In this document: in pieces, positions 34,592 to 58,674 of the stretch
Layout of the letters: every line of letters starts with the position of its first letter
How positions within the stretch are numbered: position 1 is the first letter of the stretch
Source: an uncultured Chloroflexia bacterium
GTDB taxonomy: Bacteria > Chloroflexota > Chloroflexia > QHBQ01 > JADMIH01
Length of the DNA: 64,000 bases
NCBI GenBank assembly: GCA_963797095.1
Contig: CAWCNY010000005.1
Location: 640,001-704,000, forward strand
Reading direction: 5' to 3'
The notes under the pieces: model-generated
What the model was told of the DNA's origin: nothing
Databases searched by the model: none
Seen by the model: only the letters and a program-made list of their open reading frames with translations
Position numbers and translations under genes: made by a program

Positions 34592-37231
34592 ATGCCATTA
34601 AGAGCGCCACTTTCGTGGCTTCGAGAGTATCTTGAGCTAACGGCTTCGCTTGAGGAGCTTGCGCGGCGGCTTACGCTGGCGGGGCAGGAGGTGGAGCATA
34701 TCGTGACGGTCGGTGATGAGTGGGAGAACATCTACACGGGGCAGGTAGTGAAACTGGAGAGGCATCCCAACGCCGACCGGCTGAACCTGGCTACCGTGGA
34801 ATACGGGGCGGATAGCGCGATCACGGTAGTGACGGGAGCGCCGAATATCGAGGAGGGGCAGAAGGTGGTGCTGGGGTTGCTGGGGTCGAGGTATATCGAC
34901 CAACATCAAGATCCATCAAAGGATGCGTTACCACGCAATGGCCTTAAGTGGTCGCGCCTGAAGCCCGCCAAGATACGGGGCGTGCAGACCGAGGGGATGG
35001 TGATGTCGGAGGCGGAGCTGGGGTTGTCGGAGGAGCACGAAGGGATTATCGTGTTGGACCCCGGCACGCCACTTGGCTTACCGGCGCGTGAAGTGCTTGG
35101 GGATACAGTGTTGCAGATAGATGTGACGCCTAATAATGGGCGGGTGCTGAGTATGATCGGGCTGGATAGGGAGATCTCCGCGATATTCGGGGGAAAGGTG
35201 CAGTGGCCTTCGAGCGAATGGCAGGCCGGCGGGCCATCTGTGCATGACGTACTGAAGATAGAGATAGCGGACCCCGATCTGTGCTCTCGGTACTCGGCGG
35301 CGGTGATCAAGGGGGTGCGGCTTGGGCCTTCGCCCCAGTGGATGCAGAAGCGGCTCACGCTGGCGGGGATGAGGCCGATCAGCAACATCGTAGACATTAC
35401 CAACTATGTGATGCTGGAGATGGGGCAACCACTGCATGCGTTCGATTACAACACGGTGGAGGGGCACAAGGTGATCGTGAGGCGGGCGCGGCCGGGCGAG
35501 AGGCTGGTGACGCTGGACCACGTGGACCGGGCGCTTGATCCTAATATGCTGGCGATCTGCGACGTTGAAAGACCGGTGGGGTTGGCGGGGGTGATGGGCG
35601 GATTGAACAGCGAGATCGAGGGGGAGGAAGGCGATCGTGTTGATGTGCTGCTGGAATCGGCGCATTTCGACCCCGGCAACACAAGGCGAACGGCGAGGCT
35701 GTTGCGTTTACCTTCGGAGGCGTCACATAGGTTCGAGCGGTTCGTTGACCCCAATTTGACGGTGCCCGCATTGAAGCGAGCCGCAGAGTTGATGCGGCAG
35801 TTGGGCGATGGGACTATAGCGGAGGGATATATAGATGAATATCCGGTGCCGAGCAAGCCAAAGCGGATGATGTTCTACACGTCGGAGGTGGAGCGGTTGC
35901 TGGGGATCAGGGTGGCACCAAGCCAGGTGGCCGATGTGCTGCGTAGGCTTGAGTTCGGGGTGGATATTCCGGACAACGCCGACGTGGTTGGGCAGGATAC
36001 CACGCTGATGGTGGACGTTCCTACGTACAGGAACGATGTGGTCATACAGGCCGACCTGGTGGAGGAAGTGGCGCGCATCACGGGCTACGACCTGATCCCT
36101 GAGACGTTGATCGTGGGGGGCTTGCCTCCACAGGAAGTGAATGCATCACTGGAGACGGAGGCGGAGATCCGCGATCTGATGGTGGCGTGCGGCATGGACG
36201 AGGTGATCAACTACTCGGTGACCTGGAGCGGTGCGCTTGAGAAGATGGCGGAGATGGGCGAAGGACGAAGGGTGAAGGGCGAAGGACGAGCGGAGTATGA
36301 CGCCTGGGATACGGCCCGCCTGCTGGTTACTATCGTGAACCCGGTCAGCAGCCGCCAGGATGTCATGAGGCCGACCCTGCTGCCTAATATGCTGGATACG
36401 TTGAGGAACAACTTGAAGATGCAGGCCGAAACACCGGTGCGTATCTTTGAGTTGGGCAAGGTGTACCTTTCGCCGACCGAGGCAGAGATCGAGGCGCGGC
36501 GGGAGGTTATGCGGAAGGAGCGCGAGAGGTACCCGCGCATGAACCAGTGGCCGCCCGTGGAGAACGAGGACAAGATGCCTATCGAGCCGCGCAGGATGAT
36601 GGGGATGATGGCGGGGCCGCACACGCCCCGTTCTCTGTACGCGCCCGACAGCGAGAAGGCAGAGGAGATGCTCGATTACTTCGATGCCAAGGGCGTGGTG
36701 GAGGAGTTGATAGGGCAGATGCACATCGCGGGAGTGGAGTGGGTGCCTGTGGATGCGCCACTGTTCCACCCCGGCAGGGTCGCCATGCTGCGGAAGGATG
36801 GCGTGGAATTGGGCGTGGTCGGAGAGTTGCACCCCAATCTGCTGGCGGAATGGGAGGTGCCCGCGTCGCGGGTGGCTGCCTTCGACCTGGACGTGGAGGC
36901 GCTTATAAGCGCGCTGCCTAACAGGGTGCGGTATAAGACGATCAGCGCGTACCCGCCTGTGAGACAGGATATGGCATTCGTGGTTGATGAAGGGGTGGAG
37001 GCGGCGCGAGTGGCGGAAGGGATCAGGCGAGCAGGAGGCGATGCCGTGACGGGCGTGAGCCTGTTCGATATCTACCGGGGCAAGCCTGTGCCGGAGGGCC
37101 GCAAGAGCCTGGCGTTCGCCGTGACGCTCAACTCGCCGGAGAAGCCGCTGAGCGAGGAGGAAGTGGCGCGGATACGAAAGAAGATCGAGGGAATGCTGGC
37201 GAGGGAGCTGGGAGCGCAGTTGCGCAGCTAA
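34592..37231 (+). CDS. pheT: Phenylalanine-tRNA ligase beta subunit
   Basis: HPNADRL, VDITNYVMLEMGQPLHAFD, SEASHRFER, DLVEEVARI.GY, RKSLAF. Confidence 0.98.
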   Translation: MPLRAPLSWLREYLELTASLEELARRLTLAGQEVEHIVTVGDEWENIYTGQVVKLERHPNADRLNLATVEYGADSAITVVTGAPNIEEGQKVVLGLLGSRYIDQHQDPSKDALPRNGLKWSRLKPAKIRGVQTEGMVMSEAELGLSEEHEGIIVLDPGTPLGLPAREVLGDTVLQIDVTPNNGRVLSMIGLDREISAIFGGKVQWPSSEWQAGGPSVHDVLKIEIADPDLCSRYSAAVIKGVRLGPSPQWMQKRLTLAGMRPISNIVDITNYVMLEMGQPLHAFDYNTVEGHKVIVRRARPGERLVTLDHVDRALDPNMLAICDVERPVGLAGVMGGLNSEIEGEEGDRVDVLLESAHFDPGNTRRTARLLRLPSEASHRFERFVDPNLTVPALKRAAELMRQLGDGTIAEGYIDEYPVPSKPKRMMFYTSEVERLLGIRVAPSQVADVLRRLEFGVDIPDNADVVGQDTTLMVDVPTYRNDVVIQADLVEEVARITGYDLIPETLIVGGLPPQEVNASLETEAEIRDLMVACGMDEVINYSVTWSGALEKMAEMGEGRRVKGEGRAEYDAWDTARLLVTIVNPVSSRQDVMRPTLLPNMLDTLRNNLKMQAETPVRIFELGKVYLSPTEAEIEARREVMRKERERYPRMNQWPPVENEDKMPIEPRRMMGMMAGPHTPRSLYAPDSEKAEEMLDYFDAKGVVEELIGQMHIAGVEWVPVDAPLFHPGRVAMLRKDGVELGVVGELHPNLLAEWEVPASRVAAFDLDVEALISALPNRVRYKTISAYPPVRQDMAFVVDEGVEAARVAEGIRRAGGDAVTGVSLFDIYRGKPVPEGRKSLAFAVTLNSPEKPLSEEEVARIRKKIEGMLARELGAQLRS

Positions 37232-37258: not shown

Positions 37259-39029
37259 ATGCGAGTGGCCGCAATCTACGATGTGCATGGGAACCTGCCC
37301 GCGCTTGAGGCGGTGCTCGATGAGGTTCGTCAAGCGAAGGTGGACTTAGTAGTGGTGGGCGGTGATGTGCTTCCAGGCCCAATGTCACGCGAAACAATTG
37401 CCTGTTTGCTGGACCTCGAAATACCTGTAGAGTTTATACAGGGCAACGGCGAACGCGAGATGCTTGCGCTGATGGCAGGCTCGGATGCGGTCGGCATCCC
37501 TGAGAGGTTTCGAGAGGGAGTGCGTTGGGTAGGCAGGCAGGTTCAGCCTGAATATGAGGGGCTGATAGCAAGCTGGCTCAAGACAGTCTCAGTAGAGATC
37601 GATGGGTTGGGGGAGGTGCTGTTTTGCCATGCGACACCGCGCAACGATACCGAGATATTTACCCGGCTCACGCCCGAAGACCGCCTCTTGCCTGTCTTTG
37701 AGGGGGTTAGTGCGCGCCTGGTCGTGTGCGGGCACACGCATATGCAATTTGACCGAACGATAGGAGGGGTGCGGGTCGTGAATGCCGGGAGCGTGGGAAT
37801 GCCGTATGGGGAAGCAGGGGCGTACTGGCTCTTGTTGGGGCCTGACGTTGAGTTTCGACATACGCGCTATGACCTGGCGGAAGCAGCTGAACGCGTTGGG
37901 AGCACTGATTATCCGCAGGCACAAGATTTCGCGGCAAATAATGTATGCTGCTGCCCGGCAGGGCACCTTACCTTCTGTGCCTCCCAATCCACCGCAAAAC
38001 AGCCCGCCGCATACCCTTTACCGGCTTGCGCTTGCCAACTACTGTCATCAGGTAGCGGTCCCACTAATCGCACCTCGTACTGCTCCTTACTGGCTACTAA
38101 TCGGGCAGAGTTGACGTAGCCAGCATCAACCAGGTGTTCAGTTGGTAACAGATCGCGTTCTTTCAGCGCCTGGTGGATCGGTTCTAATGATGCCTCATCC
38201 GTGGCGGTGGCCGAGGTGGTTTCTACGTGGGTGATCAGATGGGGTGTATCATCATCACAAGTCTCGGTGATATGAACCTTATAGCCAACCCAACGCTTTT
38301 CCCGTTTGTTGCCGGTGCGGGCCTCAACATCATAAGGCGAGACAATCAACAAACCGGCAGGGGGTAGGTCATCCACTTCCCGCCAACGCACGATTCCATC
38401 CTTGTCTGGAGCATGGAATTGCTGCAACCAAACCGCTCGCAAAACCTCTACCTGGGGCAGCCATCGTAAGCCCCTCGGCGCCCCTTCAGCATAGATCGCA
38501 CTCAGCAAGCGTACCCCATCAGCACCGATTATGGTGGCCATCGCTCTTCTGGCTTCTTTGCCTTTTGGTAGGTGATAGTCACTGGCGCGATGGCTGTAGC
38601 GCTCGACCCACTCGGGCTCGATAAGGGGGCCAAGCCAGTGGGGGTCTGCCTCTGCCAACTCATTGAGAGCTGAGCGCATGGTTTCAACACAATTGACCAG
38701 ACGGCCCACCGATCGTACCGCCGCTAGTACGTGAGTGGAGTCAGTGCGAGCACGCCCCCTTGCTTTGAGTAATCCTCGATCTTGTAGCGCTTCGAGCAGG
38801 GTATCAAGCAAGCGCATTTCGAGGCCACCAGCGATTAGGCGGGTGCGAAACTCGGACAAAACAGAGCTATCAAAGCCAGGATGGTGCAGCGGAAGGGCAA
38901 GAGCATATTTCCAAGCGAGGTGTCCGCGCACGGCGTCGGCGGCTTGTTCATCGCTCAGCAAATAATGTGCTGAATCCTCCTTCGGAGGAAGAAGCGCTCA
39001 AGGTGTTTACCCCGGCTGAATTGAAGTAG
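37259..39029 (+). pseudogene. Metallophosphoesterase (YfcE-like) interrupted near its 3' end
   Basis: DVHGN, GD, GHTH, NAGSVG motifs; the frame ...AANNV resumes as LNPPSEEEALKVFTPAELK* after 38968. Confidence 0.85.
37945..38957 (-). mobile_element. Internal fragment of an IS1182-family transposase flanked by an 11-bp direct repeat
   Basis: LSDEQAADAVR..WKYAL..FDSSVLSEFR..RTDSTHV..GYKVH..DAGY..RCPAG; GCAAATAATGT at 37934-37944 and 38958-38968; no terminal IRs seen. Confidence 0.85.
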
Positions 39030-40254
39030 ACGTTTCGCGCATTGCGATAAGGGGTGAGAAGAGCAGCCAGAGAGCCGCTACGAAGAAGCCGCCCACGGCT
39101 ACCAGCAAGGTGAAGCGGGCGCTGGTGGAGGTGGCAAGCACACCGGCTACGATAGCGCCGAGGGGGCCCGCGCCGCCTGTGAGGAACTGGGTGGTGGCGA
39201 TCACGCGGCCCAGGAGGCGGGATGAGGTGGTCATCTGGCGCAGGCTGTTCTCGCCTATTTGATAGACCTCCCAGGCTATGTCGCCCAGGAACTGGGCCAG
39301 GAACATCATGACAATCACCAGCACGACAGGGCCTGCGGCGAGAGGCACAAGTAGCTCGAAGGTGGAAGTTGTAAAGGCGGCCAGCACGAGCAGGCGGCCC
39401 AACCCGAAACGCCGCGCGAGCCGCCCGGCGCTGGCCGCGCCGATCAGCGCACCCACACCTCCCGCCGAGATCATGAGGCCGATTATGCCGCTCGAAAGGT
39501 GAAGCTCGTTGATGGCGAAGAAGGTATAGAGGGTAGCGAAGAACCAGCCGAAGAAACTCTGTAGAAGCCCGGCCACCGCCAGCGTACGAAGGATGGGGGT
39601 GCGCCAGAGGGTGGAGAGACCTTCGCGGGTCTCACGCCAGACATTGTGGGTTTCGTGGCCTTCCTCGCGCATGGGCGGGACCTCAGGGGTGCGGATCAGA
39701 GCGAGCCAGAAGGCCGACCAGAGGAAGGAGACCACGTCGAAGAGCATGGTGAAGGGAGCGCTAATCACCTGCACCAACAGGCCGACGAAGGCAGGGCCGC
39801 CTACTTCGGAGAGCGACCCGGTGAGGCTGAGGCGGCTGTTAGCCTCCATGATCTGTTCGCGCGGGACGATGCTGGGGAGATAGGAGCGGTCGGCCACGTT
39901 GAACACCAGGGTGAGGATTGCATGGAGACCAGCGGCCAGGTAGAGTTGCCAGAGATGGAGGCCGTTGAAGAAGGCCGCAATGGGGATGGTGAGGAGGGTG
40001 GCAGCGCGAAGCAGGTCGGTGGCGATCAGGAGGGGGCGGCGCGGCAGGCGGTCGACCCACACGCCCACAAAGAGGCCAAGGAGGAGCACCGGCACAGCCT
40101 GAGACACCGAAAGGATGCTCATTTGGGCGGCGGTGGCCGACATGGTGAGCACGGTAGCGTAGGCAAAGGCCTCGCGCGTAATATTCGAGCCGAACGCCGA
40201 TACAGCCTGGGCGGTCCAGAGCTTCTTAAAGTCGCTGTTGAGGCCGGTGCGCAT
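39007..40254 (-). CDS. MFS transporter
   Basis: DFKKLWTAQAVSAFGS, GVWVDRLPRR, LLGRV. Confidence 0.9.
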   Translation of the reverse strand: MRTGLNSDFKKLWTAQAVSAFGSNITREAFAYATVLTMSATAAQMSILSVSQAVPVLLLGLFVGVWVDRLPRRPLLIATDLLRAATLLTIPIAAFFNGLHLWQLYLAAGLHAILTLVFNVADRSYLPSIVPREQIMEANSRLSLTGSLSEVGGPAFVGLLVQVISAPFTMLFDVVSFLWSAFWLALIRTPEVPPMREEGHETHNVWRETREGLSTLWRTPILRTLAVAGLLQSFFGWFFATLYTFFAINELHLSSGIIGLMISAGGVGALIGAASAGRLARRFGLGRLLVLAAFTTSTFELLVPLAAGPVVLVIVMMFLAQFLGDIAWEVYQIGENSLRQMTTSSRLLGRVIATTQFLTGGAGPLGAIVAGVLATSTSARFTLLVAVGGFFVAALWLLFSPLIAMRETSTSIQPG

Positions 40255-56991: not shown

Positions 56992-58674
56992 AGCATCGGT
57001 CAAGTAATCAGGCAGCCGCAGCCAAGAACTGCGGGGAACGAGCCAATACATGCAGATTGTTCACCACAGCACAGCGCCGCAGATCAAACAGGTTCTTGCG
57101 TACGCCAATGTAGCGGGCGTCCTCGCCCTGCCAGTGCCCGACGTGCGCCAAGCTGTGCTCTACCCCCACCCGTTCCCGCAGCTTGGCTCGTCCGCTGGCT
57201 GTCTGCTGCCGCTCCCGCAACTCCGCCAGCAACGCCTCATCCGGGTGGATACTCACGCTGCGCCCTGCTTTACTACTCGTGCAGCGCTCCCGCAATCCAC
57301 AGGCGTCGCACTGCTCGACCGGAAAATGCACCAGAGCTCCCAGCTCGAAGTTCAACTCGATGCCGTTGGGGCAACGGATCGTCTGCTTCTCCCAATCGAG
57401 GGTGAACGCCGTCTTGTCGAAGTAAACCCCGTTGCGCACCGGCCAAGTCTTACAATAGACTTGCTGGCCACCCTGGCGCTGGCGCACCCAACTGCTACTC
57501 AGGTAGGCACGATCGATGTGCAACTCGCGCCAACTGATGCCCAGGTGCAACAGGTCCGCGGCCATGCTCTCAGTCACGCTAGCCTCCGGCGCATTGGCTG
57601 GCGTGATGCCGACTGCCACCAGCAACTCACTATCCAAGTCACGCAGCACATGGCGCTTGTAACCATCGATCAAGCGGCTCTTGCTCTTGCGACCATGACG
57701 CATCTGGGCGTCCTCGATGCTGATGCGTCGCTCTGGCGCGACCCCTTGCCGCAAGATCGCCCCACCCGCAGCATCCGTGGTCACGTCTTGCTCTTGTACT
57801 TGCGCGGCAGCAGCCAGGCTAGCCTTGACCTGGGGCTGCTCAACCGCATCTTGTTCGCGCAGATAAGCTTCACCGGCAGCAAGTGCCGCCAGCACCAACT
57901 GCAAGGCTTGTTGTTGCTGCGCCGGGTCGTCCCAATCCAGATCGAGTGCCGCCTTGAGGCTGGAGCCCGAGACCAACTCCGCCCCAGCCGCACTTGCCAC
58001 CTCCGCCAGCTCCCGCCCCTGCTGCGCGGCCAACACGCCCAAAGCCTTACGCAGGGCGTGACCCAACAGATTGAAGGTATCTTCCACCCGTGCGGCACCC
58101 CACAGGGGACTGCTGTCAAGGGCCACCCGCAACTGGCGCGAACCGAAGTCGCCACTTTGTTCAGCCAACTCAACGGTACGCTCAATCAAGCGACGGTCGA
58201 GGTTGTGTTTGATGAGAGCGGCACGAAAGGCGACCAGGGTACCCTTGCTGAAGGGGGCGGTGTCGCTGTCGAGACAATCGAGAACCAGTTGCCAGCGGCG
58301 GTCCATCAGGCTAGCCTCGATGACCTCGTCGTCGGAAACCCCGCTGTAGGCTTGCAGCAGCGTAGCCAAGGCGAGTTGAGCGGGCGGAATAGGAGGTTGA
58401 CCACGAGAGCTATCCTCATAGAGGGTAGCCAGCTCAGCTTGGAAATCGATGGAAAAGAGGCGGTGGCGGTGCAGGCGCAAGAAGACAAAGAGCTTGGCGC
58501 GACGAATACGCTTGACGACCTGTTGTTCAAGGGTAGAGAGTTCAATAGGAGGCTCCCAGACAGCGGGGCGCATGGCATTATTCCTTTCTGTTGGCCTATA
58601 GTTGGTTTGCCAACTCTAGCAAACCATGCCCTGTCCGCCTTGTCAAGCCTTCGCCCGATTACTTGACCGATGTT
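56992..58674 (-). mobile_element. IS1182-family insertion sequence, apparently intact
   Basis: IRs AGCATCGGTCAAGTAATC / GATTACTTGACCGATGTT; CTAG on both flanks (56988-56991, 58675-58678). Confidence 0.9.
57008..58573 (-). CDS. IS1182-family transposase
   Basis: 521 aa: GQPPIPP, LQAY.GVSD, LDSSPL, GYKRH, DRAY, RCPNG..C..C...C, RVGVEH. Confidence 0.9.
   Translation of the reverse strand: MRPAVWEPPIELSTLEQQVVKRIRRAKLFVFLRLHRHRLFSIDFQAELATLYEDSSRGQPPIPPAQLALATLLQAYSGVSDDEVIEASLMDRRWQLVLDCLDSDTAPFSKGTLVAFRAALIKHNLDRRLIERTVELAEQSGDFGSRQLRVALDSSPLWGAARVEDTFNLLGHALRKALGVLAAQQGRELAEVASAAGAELVSGSSLKAALDLDWDDPAQQQQALQLVLAALAAGEAYLREQDAVEQPQVKASLAAAAQVQEQDVTTDAAGGAILRQGVAPERRISIEDAQMRHGRKSKSRLIDGYKRHVLRDLDSELLVAVGITPANAPEASVTESMAADLLHLGISWRELHIDRAYLSSSWVRQRQGGQQVYCKTWPVRNGVYFDKTAFTLDWEKQTIRCPNGIELNFELGALVHFPVEQCDACGLRERCTSSKAGRSVSIHPDEALLAELRERQQTASGRAKLRERVGVEHSLAHVGHWQGEDARYIGVRKNLFDLRRCAVVNNLHVLARSPQFLAAAA

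Follow-up and report, generated by a model that had tools for sequence, protein, structure and literature searches.

How does an internal piece of a transposase gene, lacking both ends of the insertion sequence (IS) it comes from, end up inside another gene between two exact copies of a short direct repeat? This question is raised by a 64-kb stretch of DNA from an uncultured Chloroflexia bacterium (C5:640001-704000, the window), in which a calcineurin-like metallophosphoesterase gene is split by a 1013-bp insert derived almost entirely from an IS1182-family transposase gene. The window's own genome (G000, whose contigs C2, C3, C4, C5, C6 and C8 are named below) comprises 6.02 Mb in 8 contigs and is 93% complete. 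We find that the event is real and single, with its mechanism left between template switching and several rival routes. Our tentative preference is for a recent, one-off templated insertion that did not arise by transposition; template switching onto a single-stranded copy, of RNA or of DNA, would have made it.

Exactly two copies of the 11-mer GCAAATAATGT are present in the window (expected count 0.01; two matches in 0 of 100 shuffles), at 37934-37944 and at 38958-38968, and both copies are exact, as the initial annotation of this stretch had claimed. Between them lie 1013 bp (37945-38957), all of which had been described as transposase fragment. That description holds for the 1009 bp at 37949-38957; the remaining four bases, ATGC (37945-37948), directly follow the left copy and form a filler that is absent from both the parent IS on C6 and the empty target site in a base-by-base comparison with C6. 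Window positions 37949-38958 equal C6:205162-206171 at every base except 38112 (99.9% identity; 1009/1010 counting G38958). The first base of the right copy, G38958, continues the identity with the parent, which ends directly after it, and this shared base (a 1-nt overlap) is assignable either to the parent copy or to the right repeat. The copied stretch itself runs TG...CA. On an alternative reading of the left junction, AT may have been inserted and the target bases GCTG, which follow the duplication, may then have been repeated, with a 2-base donor overlap; by a rough estimate, such a pattern has a chance of about 2%. At the switch points, the right junction has an overlap of 1 nt, and the left has none (with the 4-nt filler) or, if AT was inserted, 2 nt.

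Was the host gene once whole? It starts at 37259 on the plus strand, and its 5' part, up to the end of the left repeat (37259-37944), matches Pfam Metallophos_2 (E 1.2e-19). The last 20 codons and the stop codon have been displaced to 38967-39029 (plus strand), where they align to the C-termini of 3/3 close orthologues. A protein search for orthologues in 41 genomes of the same genus, order and class returned matches in 37, a tally that includes 4 genomes flagged as unpublished on which no later claim depends. In the three close orthologues (amino acid identity 78% in G005, 74% in G012 and 73% in G003), the gene is uninterrupted, and the alignment of the N-terminal part stops exactly where that of the 20-residue C-terminal piece starts (positions 290/290, 234/234 and 232/232). 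At the DNA level, the left and right flanks in the window both align to the same 11 bases of G003 (C6:5402-5412 of that genome), and a four-way alignment places the two repeat copies on one site in both G003 and G012. Because the orthologues are uninterrupted and both repeat copies align to a single site, the host gene was formerly continuous and the 11-mer is a true target duplication, the left copy corresponding to a single-copy site in the orthologues. This bears out the earlier claim that removing the insert and one repeat copy restores the reading frame, and the empty allele that was to be sought in relatives is present in G005, G012 and G003. The interrupted frame now reads into the insert up to 38119 and encodes 286 aa, in which a 57-residue foreign tail replaces the last 20 codons. 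The outcome of the insertion is a truncated phosphoesterase gene carrying a dead scrap of transposase without a function of its own.

The source of this scrap is found in the same genome. On the minus strand, the antisense frame at 37909-38961 matches DUF772. It also matches the IS1182 model NF033551, with a score of 195.8 bits (cut-off, 270; parent, 328.9 bits) over profile positions 72-376 of 488. The copied stretch (37949-38957), whose sense strand is the minus strand of the window, spans LSDEQAADAVR to RCPAGQQ, or residues 74-410 of the 562-aa parent protein, in keeping with the initial description of a middle-only piece of an IS1182-family transposase lying antisense to the host gene. A search for the full-length parent, to which the fragment ends could be aligned, yielded a complete IS1182-family element at C6:204680-206509 (1830 bp). 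Its transposase carries the domains DUF772 and DDE_Tnp_1_6, its terminal inverted repeats are 28 nt long (89% identity), and it is flanked by a 7-bp duplication, TATACAG, as opposed to the 11 bp at the insert. The fragment lies wholly inside this element, which extends beyond it by 339 nt on one side and by 482 nt on the other. Insert-like sequence is present at only two loci in the genome, the insert and the inside of the parent. The parent transposase gene has no intron, and the insert has no poly(A).

An artefact of library or assembly, in which a piece of the IS was misplaced into the phosphoesterase gene through a chimeric molecule or an error in the graph, would make the question moot. 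In its favor, public sequencing runs cover only the context of the parent and supply no independent junction reads. However, such an error would not produce an exact 11-base duplication, four added bases and one difference from the parent, and the flanks of the insert are found once only in the assembly. That a 6-Mb genome is resolved into 8 contigs despite 313 kb of repeats implies a long-read assembly, with reads presumably able to span 1 kb. We regard an artefact as very improbable.

Nor is the insert a mobile element, whether an IS1182 unit, a miniature inverted-repeat transposable element (MITE) or an intron. As the initial annotation had noted, inverted repeats are not seen at the insert ends, which match each other at 9/25 positions. 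Both ends were also compared with 22 resident IS and MITE termini, the parent's repeat included, at shifts of up to 6 nt and against a null of 3000 random position pairs; none of these termini reached P < 0.05 (smallest value, 0.077), and the parent's own repeat matched at 9 and 7 of 16 positions (P 0.26). Group II intron domain V/VI (RF00029) had no match in either the insert or the parent at E up to 0.1, whereas introns elsewhere in the genome score at least 43.7 bits.

The insert is also unique in the 6-Mb genome as the only segment that lacks inverted repeats yet carries a flanking target duplication. A genome self-comparison (1098 repeat pairs in 86 families, 313 kb of repeats) contained 248 repeat intervals of at least 150 bp, of which 42 had a flanking repeat of at least 8 bp; apart from this insert and C4:713106-713883, these were IS or MITE copies bearing inverted repeats. 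A second scan at finer scale (40-1500 bp, at least 95% identity, two copies only) reduced 2228 pairs to 10 candidates, namely eight with inverted repeats, the C4 element and, once more, this insert. The initial annotation had proposed to scan for further gene-interrupting inserts with direct repeats and no inverted repeats; no further true case emerged. It had also held that many copies with defined ends would reduce the insert to an ordinary non-autonomous element, and only one copy with these ends exists.

The C4 segment (778 bp, with a 12-bp flanking repeat and a 4-nt gap) was considered as a second case and rejected. It is a group II intron without an open reading frame (ORF; RF00029, 43.7 bits) that begins GTGCG. 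Its location within a tandem heptamer array means that the flanking repeat did not arise by insertion. This ORF-less intron of about 0.77 kb is present in two copies at 99.7% identity. One (C4:713110-713881) lies in a tandem array of the heptamer AGTGAAG at the 3' end of a long gene, and the other (C6:300490-301260) lies inside an IS3-type transposase gene whose frame resumes directly after the intron. A second domain V/VI match stands 1 kb away in the same IS3-type IS (C6:301502-301595).

These observations bear on two routes by which ordinary transposition might account for the locus. One is that a full-length copy of the IS inserted and later lost both of its ends by deletion. The source family is indeed a real IS in this genome, yet two independent deletions (339 and 482 bp) would be needed, each ending flush with an intact copy of the duplication. 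Moreover, the parent makes a 7-bp rather than an 11-bp duplication, the 99.9% identity leaves little time for decay, and a full-length element at this exact site was present in none of the 26 genus genomes searched. We consider this route extremely improbable, in agreement with the initial annotation, which had rejected a decayed IS copy.

The other is that a host DDE transposase or another integrase used two cryptic internal sequences as ends and thereby generated the 11-bp duplication. Several active IS families resident in this genome make duplications of 8-12 bp, and the TG...CA limits of the copied stretch are dinucleotides used by many DDE enzymes. Against this, the 22 resident termini match the insert ends no better than they match random positions, and the ends are not mutual inverted repeats (9/25). 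Four unmatched bases separate the duplication from the TG end, the parent's duplication is 7 bp and not 11, Cas1 was not found in the genome, and there is no second copy with these ends. Transposition from cryptic ends is thus improbable, if less so than decay of a full copy.

If the fragment was not cut out by a transposase, what set its limits? On the sense strand of the parent, the fragment covers positions 340-1348, or 339-1348 with the shared base. We defined a perfect hairpin as a stem of at least 5 bp with a loop of 3-8 nt, of which the 1830-nt parent contains 9. One of these (parent sense 320-336) ends 3 nt before the first base of the fragment, and another (parent sense 1332-1345; 5-bp stem; window 37952-37965, minus strand) ends 3 nt before its last base, at the sense 3' end. 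That both breakpoints fall at most 3 nt downstream of a perfect hairpin has a P value of 0.0004, or 0.0017 if any of four geometries is allowed. Because the hairpins had been seen before this first test, a threshold-free retest was run. It assigned to every possible breakpoint the energy of the most favorable closed hairpin whose end lay 2-4 nt upstream. The observed breakpoints ranked at 0.082 and 0.048 (joint, 0.004-0.007). At the target, a hairpin with a 6-bp stem (38975-38989; -7.6 kcal/mol, z-score -2.2) starts 6 nt after the duplication, a proximity with a P value of 0.045; if GCTG is target-derived, the distance is 2 nt and P is 0.023.

What enzymes could have joined such a fragment to the chromosome? 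The initial annotation had suggested looking for reverse transcriptase (RT), Cas1 or casposase, and Ku/LigD genes. Proteins combining RT with HNH domains are plentiful, whereas Ku (PF02735), the LigD primase-polymerase (PF21686) and Cas1 (PF01867) each had 0 matches in this 93%-complete genome, which cannot prove the absence of genes that were not found. The ATP-dependent ligase domain has 3 matches at 2 loci. RVT_1 matches 24 times, and group II intron domain V/VI 22 times, 19 of these above the gathering score. Among 14 RT frames, the motif is YADD in 10, FADD in 2 and neither of these in 2; a G2L4-type RT was considered and rejected, YIDD being present in 0/14. RVT_1, maturase and HNH endonuclease domains stand together in 4/5 RT proteins scanned. 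Two RTs, of 628 aa and 555 aa, are each present as identical duplicates, which points to recent intron mobility.

Two direct links between these introns and the insert were sought and rejected. The target resembles an intron 3'-exon site at 8/12 positions at best over 22 introns, 2 strands and 4 shifts (176 comparisons), which is chance level. An intron insertion site at the fragment boundary was suggested by diverged relatives of the parent transposase (45-53% aa identity; C2:820822-827597 and C3:572969-575707), which are split between W89 and K90; this point lies 16 codons from the fragment start at L74, and the two do not coincide. The block that splits these relatives is about 4.9 kb long and holds nested group II introns and several RT genes, and its introns appear to home into this IS1182-type transposase family.

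With this inventory, we can weigh end-joining capture, in which a staggered double-strand break would have received, by ligation, a linear double-stranded piece broken out of a copy of the IS, with fill-in of the 11-nt overhangs of the break. We include here a two-step variant, in which an IS that makes 8-12-bp duplications inserts, excises by cut-and-paste and leaves a gap between the duplication copies that is sealed with filler DNA. The exact duplication, the 4-nt filler and the nearly blunt join are typical of end-joining products, and ATP-dependent ligase genes are available at 2 loci. The two-step variant could further draw on a resident CAGGGC...GATGCAAAGTCAG group of IS and MITEs that makes 8-12-bp duplications, one of them 11 bp long (C2:840631), although the filler matches the first bases of no resident IS terminus. 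Ku-independent end joining in E. coli, reportedly described by Chayot et al. in 2010, is said to involve resection and microhomology; here, neither target end lost a base. Nor would random breakage be expected to place the two donor breakpoints each 3 nt beyond a hairpin of the same strand. Because Ku and LigD were not found, no target base was lost and the breakpoints adjoin hairpins, a break sealed with a pre-existing fragment fits less well, and we judge this route unlikely while treating it as the chief competitor.

Template switching would give the same structure without a double-strand break, and it fits the hairpin-adjacent breakpoints somewhat better. We infer the direction of copying, the stalling at hairpins and the enzyme as follows. 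The growing 3' end of the window's plus strand would have copied the target through GCAAATAATGT, possibly with 4 bases more, and left the target template just before the target hairpin. The departed 3' end would have gained a few unmatched bases and would then have been extended by 1009 nt on a single-stranded copy of the transposase sense strand, which may have been a product of RNA decay or an exposed stretch of single-stranded DNA. Copying would have started 3 nt downstream of one donor hairpin and stopped 3 nt downstream of another. Finally, the strand would have returned to the target with a 1-base overlap, 11 nt behind its exit point, and thereby duplicated the 11-mer. The initial annotation had proposed that an arbitrary fragment was captured at an 11-nt staggered break; the one-off internal piece and the true duplication agree with that proposal, whereas the break itself becomes unnecessary under template switching.

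A more specific and rather doubtful version holds that the insert is the bacterial equivalent of a processed pseudogene. Here, a resident group II intron RT would have reverse-transcribed a piece of decaying transposase mRNA whose 3' end had been cut back to 3 nt past a hairpin. The primer would have been a chromosomal 3' end, exposed by a nick from the HNH domain or belonging to a stalled nascent strand; untemplated bases would have been added at entry, and a switch of the RT back to the chromosome on a single base pair would have made the 11-bp duplication. 3'-Exonucleases trim RNA back to within a few bases of a hairpin and leave a free 3' end there. Fragment ends 3 nt past hairpins are therefore as expected of exonuclease-trimmed RNA 3' ends, yet they are also compatible with single-stranded DNA. 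By analogy with characterized enzymes, the RT-maturase-HNH proteins of this genome may provide the tolerance of 0-1 bp of pairing and the addition of untemplated bases that the junctions call for, and their presence counts in favor of template switching in general. Park et al. describe RTs of group II introns as adding untemplated bases, switching templates best with a single base pair and being able to repair chromosomal breaks (bioRxiv 10.1101/2022.03.14.484287). The repairs observed in that work are deletions, and insertion of cDNA at breaks is cited there for LINE-1 only (a long interspersed nuclear element, LINE). Single-stranded DNA at another replication fork is an equally good candidate for the template.

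Several points weigh against template switching. The link to hairpins was spotted before it was tested and is in this sense post hoc. The donor hairpins have z-scores of -1.0 and +0.1, an ordinary stability for GC-rich sequence, and at least 5 stronger imperfect hairpins inside the fragment would have been read through. That copying should begin immediately ahead of a hairpin makes sense only for a template with a free 3' end at that point, and an overlap of 0-2 nt is too little for priming by a replicative polymerase. As a marker of replication polarity, GC skew changes sign about every 100 kb on both contigs (C5 and C6) and gives no polarity. In four public soil-metagenome runs, 12 contig pieces matched the insert, all but one (a 35-nt stray match) within 37949-38958; 5/7 loose ends of these read contigs continue into the C6 flanks of the parent, and the host-gene flanks are uncovered, leaving the junctions without read support. 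Lastly, one event cannot show a mechanism.

How does the insert compare with products of known systems? LINE-1-type processed pseudogenes and cDNA captured at breaks, as cited by Park et al. (bioRxiv 10.1101/2022.03.14.484287), resemble it in being partial copies of a transcribed gene that lack element ends and whose source is retained. Further likenesses are a target duplication of variable length (11 bp here), a few extra junction bases, an overlap of 0-1 nt, and an RT and an endonuclease that are encoded in this genome as well. The insert differs in lying in a bacterium, in having no poly(A) and being truncated at both ends, and in a genome where no LINE and only group II intron RTs were seen; an RNA intermediate is here a candidate only.

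The comparison extends to geometry. Target-primed reverse transcription is marked by a 7-20-bp duplication with small additions or overlaps at the junctions, and the present locus has 11 bp, a 4-nt filler and a 1-nt overlap in a genome that encodes RT and HNH. When LINE elements insert by target-primed reverse transcription, the duplicated stretch stays behind the 3' end of each target strand, and the copying geometry proposed here would be the same. Group II intron endonucleases, in contrast, cut at +9/+10, and the stagger implied by the insert has the opposite polarity.

A second parallel is with templated insertions by fork stalling and template switching or microhomology-mediated break-induced replication (FoSTeS/MMBIR; Gu et al., PMC5120786). 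In such events, an ectopic stretch is likewise copied rather than moved (the C6 parent is intact), a short duplication arises at the return, and switch points lie beside hairpins. They differ from the insert in their usual overlap of 2-5 nt or more, as opposed to 0-2 nt here, and the insert has 4 unmatched bases. Two further classes can be compared. Filler capture by end joining, whether by Ku/LigD or Ku-independent, shares with it a functionless internal gene scrap, a short exact duplication, small junction additions and a single event; here, however, Ku and the LigD primase-polymerase were not found, the ends are unresected and the donor breakpoints are non-random with respect to hairpins. 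IS1182-family IS and MITEs (NF033551) share its sequence content, which comes from a transposase gene of that family, and differ from it in that the insert has no inverted repeats, no intact transposase, an 11-bp instead of the parent's 7-bp duplication, and one copy. Copy-choice slippage promoted by hairpins is known in E. coli.

Insertions in bacterial genomes are generally ascribed to mobile elements or to homologous or site-specific recombination. The present locus is a clean natural case in which a 1-kb internal piece of a gene was copied ectopically with a target duplication, in a genome that is rich in group II intron RTs and in which Ku and LigD were not found. It shows that ectopic insertion by way of break repair or template switching takes place in the wild, and it supplies a signature that can be searched for, namely a segment that has no inverted repeats but is flanked by a short, exact duplication, with a few filler bases and with donor breakpoints that lie just beyond hairpins of one strand. 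The literature searched, in its accessible parts, describes no insertion of a cellular mRNA copy and no kilobase templated insertion with target duplication in a bacterial chromosome, which is not proof that none exists. If the RNA route is true, the insert would be evidence from nature that a bacterial chromosome can have cellular RNA written into it by group II intron RTs. Should such scars prove enriched in RT-rich genomes, with donors always in transcript polarity, the flow of information from RNA to chromosome in bacteria, an idea of long standing, would become directly testable; if there is no such enrichment, the insert would be an ordinary, though rarely documented, scar of illegitimate recombination.

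The surroundings of the locus and several repeat families of the genome yielded further observations. The host gene is preceded by pheT (34592-37231) and followed by a major facilitator superfamily transporter gene on the minus strand (39007-40254). Along C5 and C6, GC skew reaches amplitudes of up to 0.29 and seems to track local gene orientation rather than a single replication axis. The closest diverged relative of the parent transposase lies at C8:74502-75622 (80% DNA and 81% aa identity) and has about 150 extra bp between the parts matching query positions 402 and 414, which could represent a small insertion. A distant relative, at 27-31% aa identity, is present in three copies, one of them in the window at 57053-58456 (C5:697053-698456) and the others at C2:726504-727907 and C3:1129739-1131148. 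Finally, a 1473-bp IS and three MITE-like families (145-217 bp) share termini beginning (C/T)AGGGC...ATGC and make duplications of 8-12 bp, with examples at C2:840642-842114, C5:51683-51844, C2:920997-921212 and C2:504566-504710. In three of the four the termini continue as GATGCAAAGTCAG, and it looks as if one transposase serves several of these non-autonomous families.

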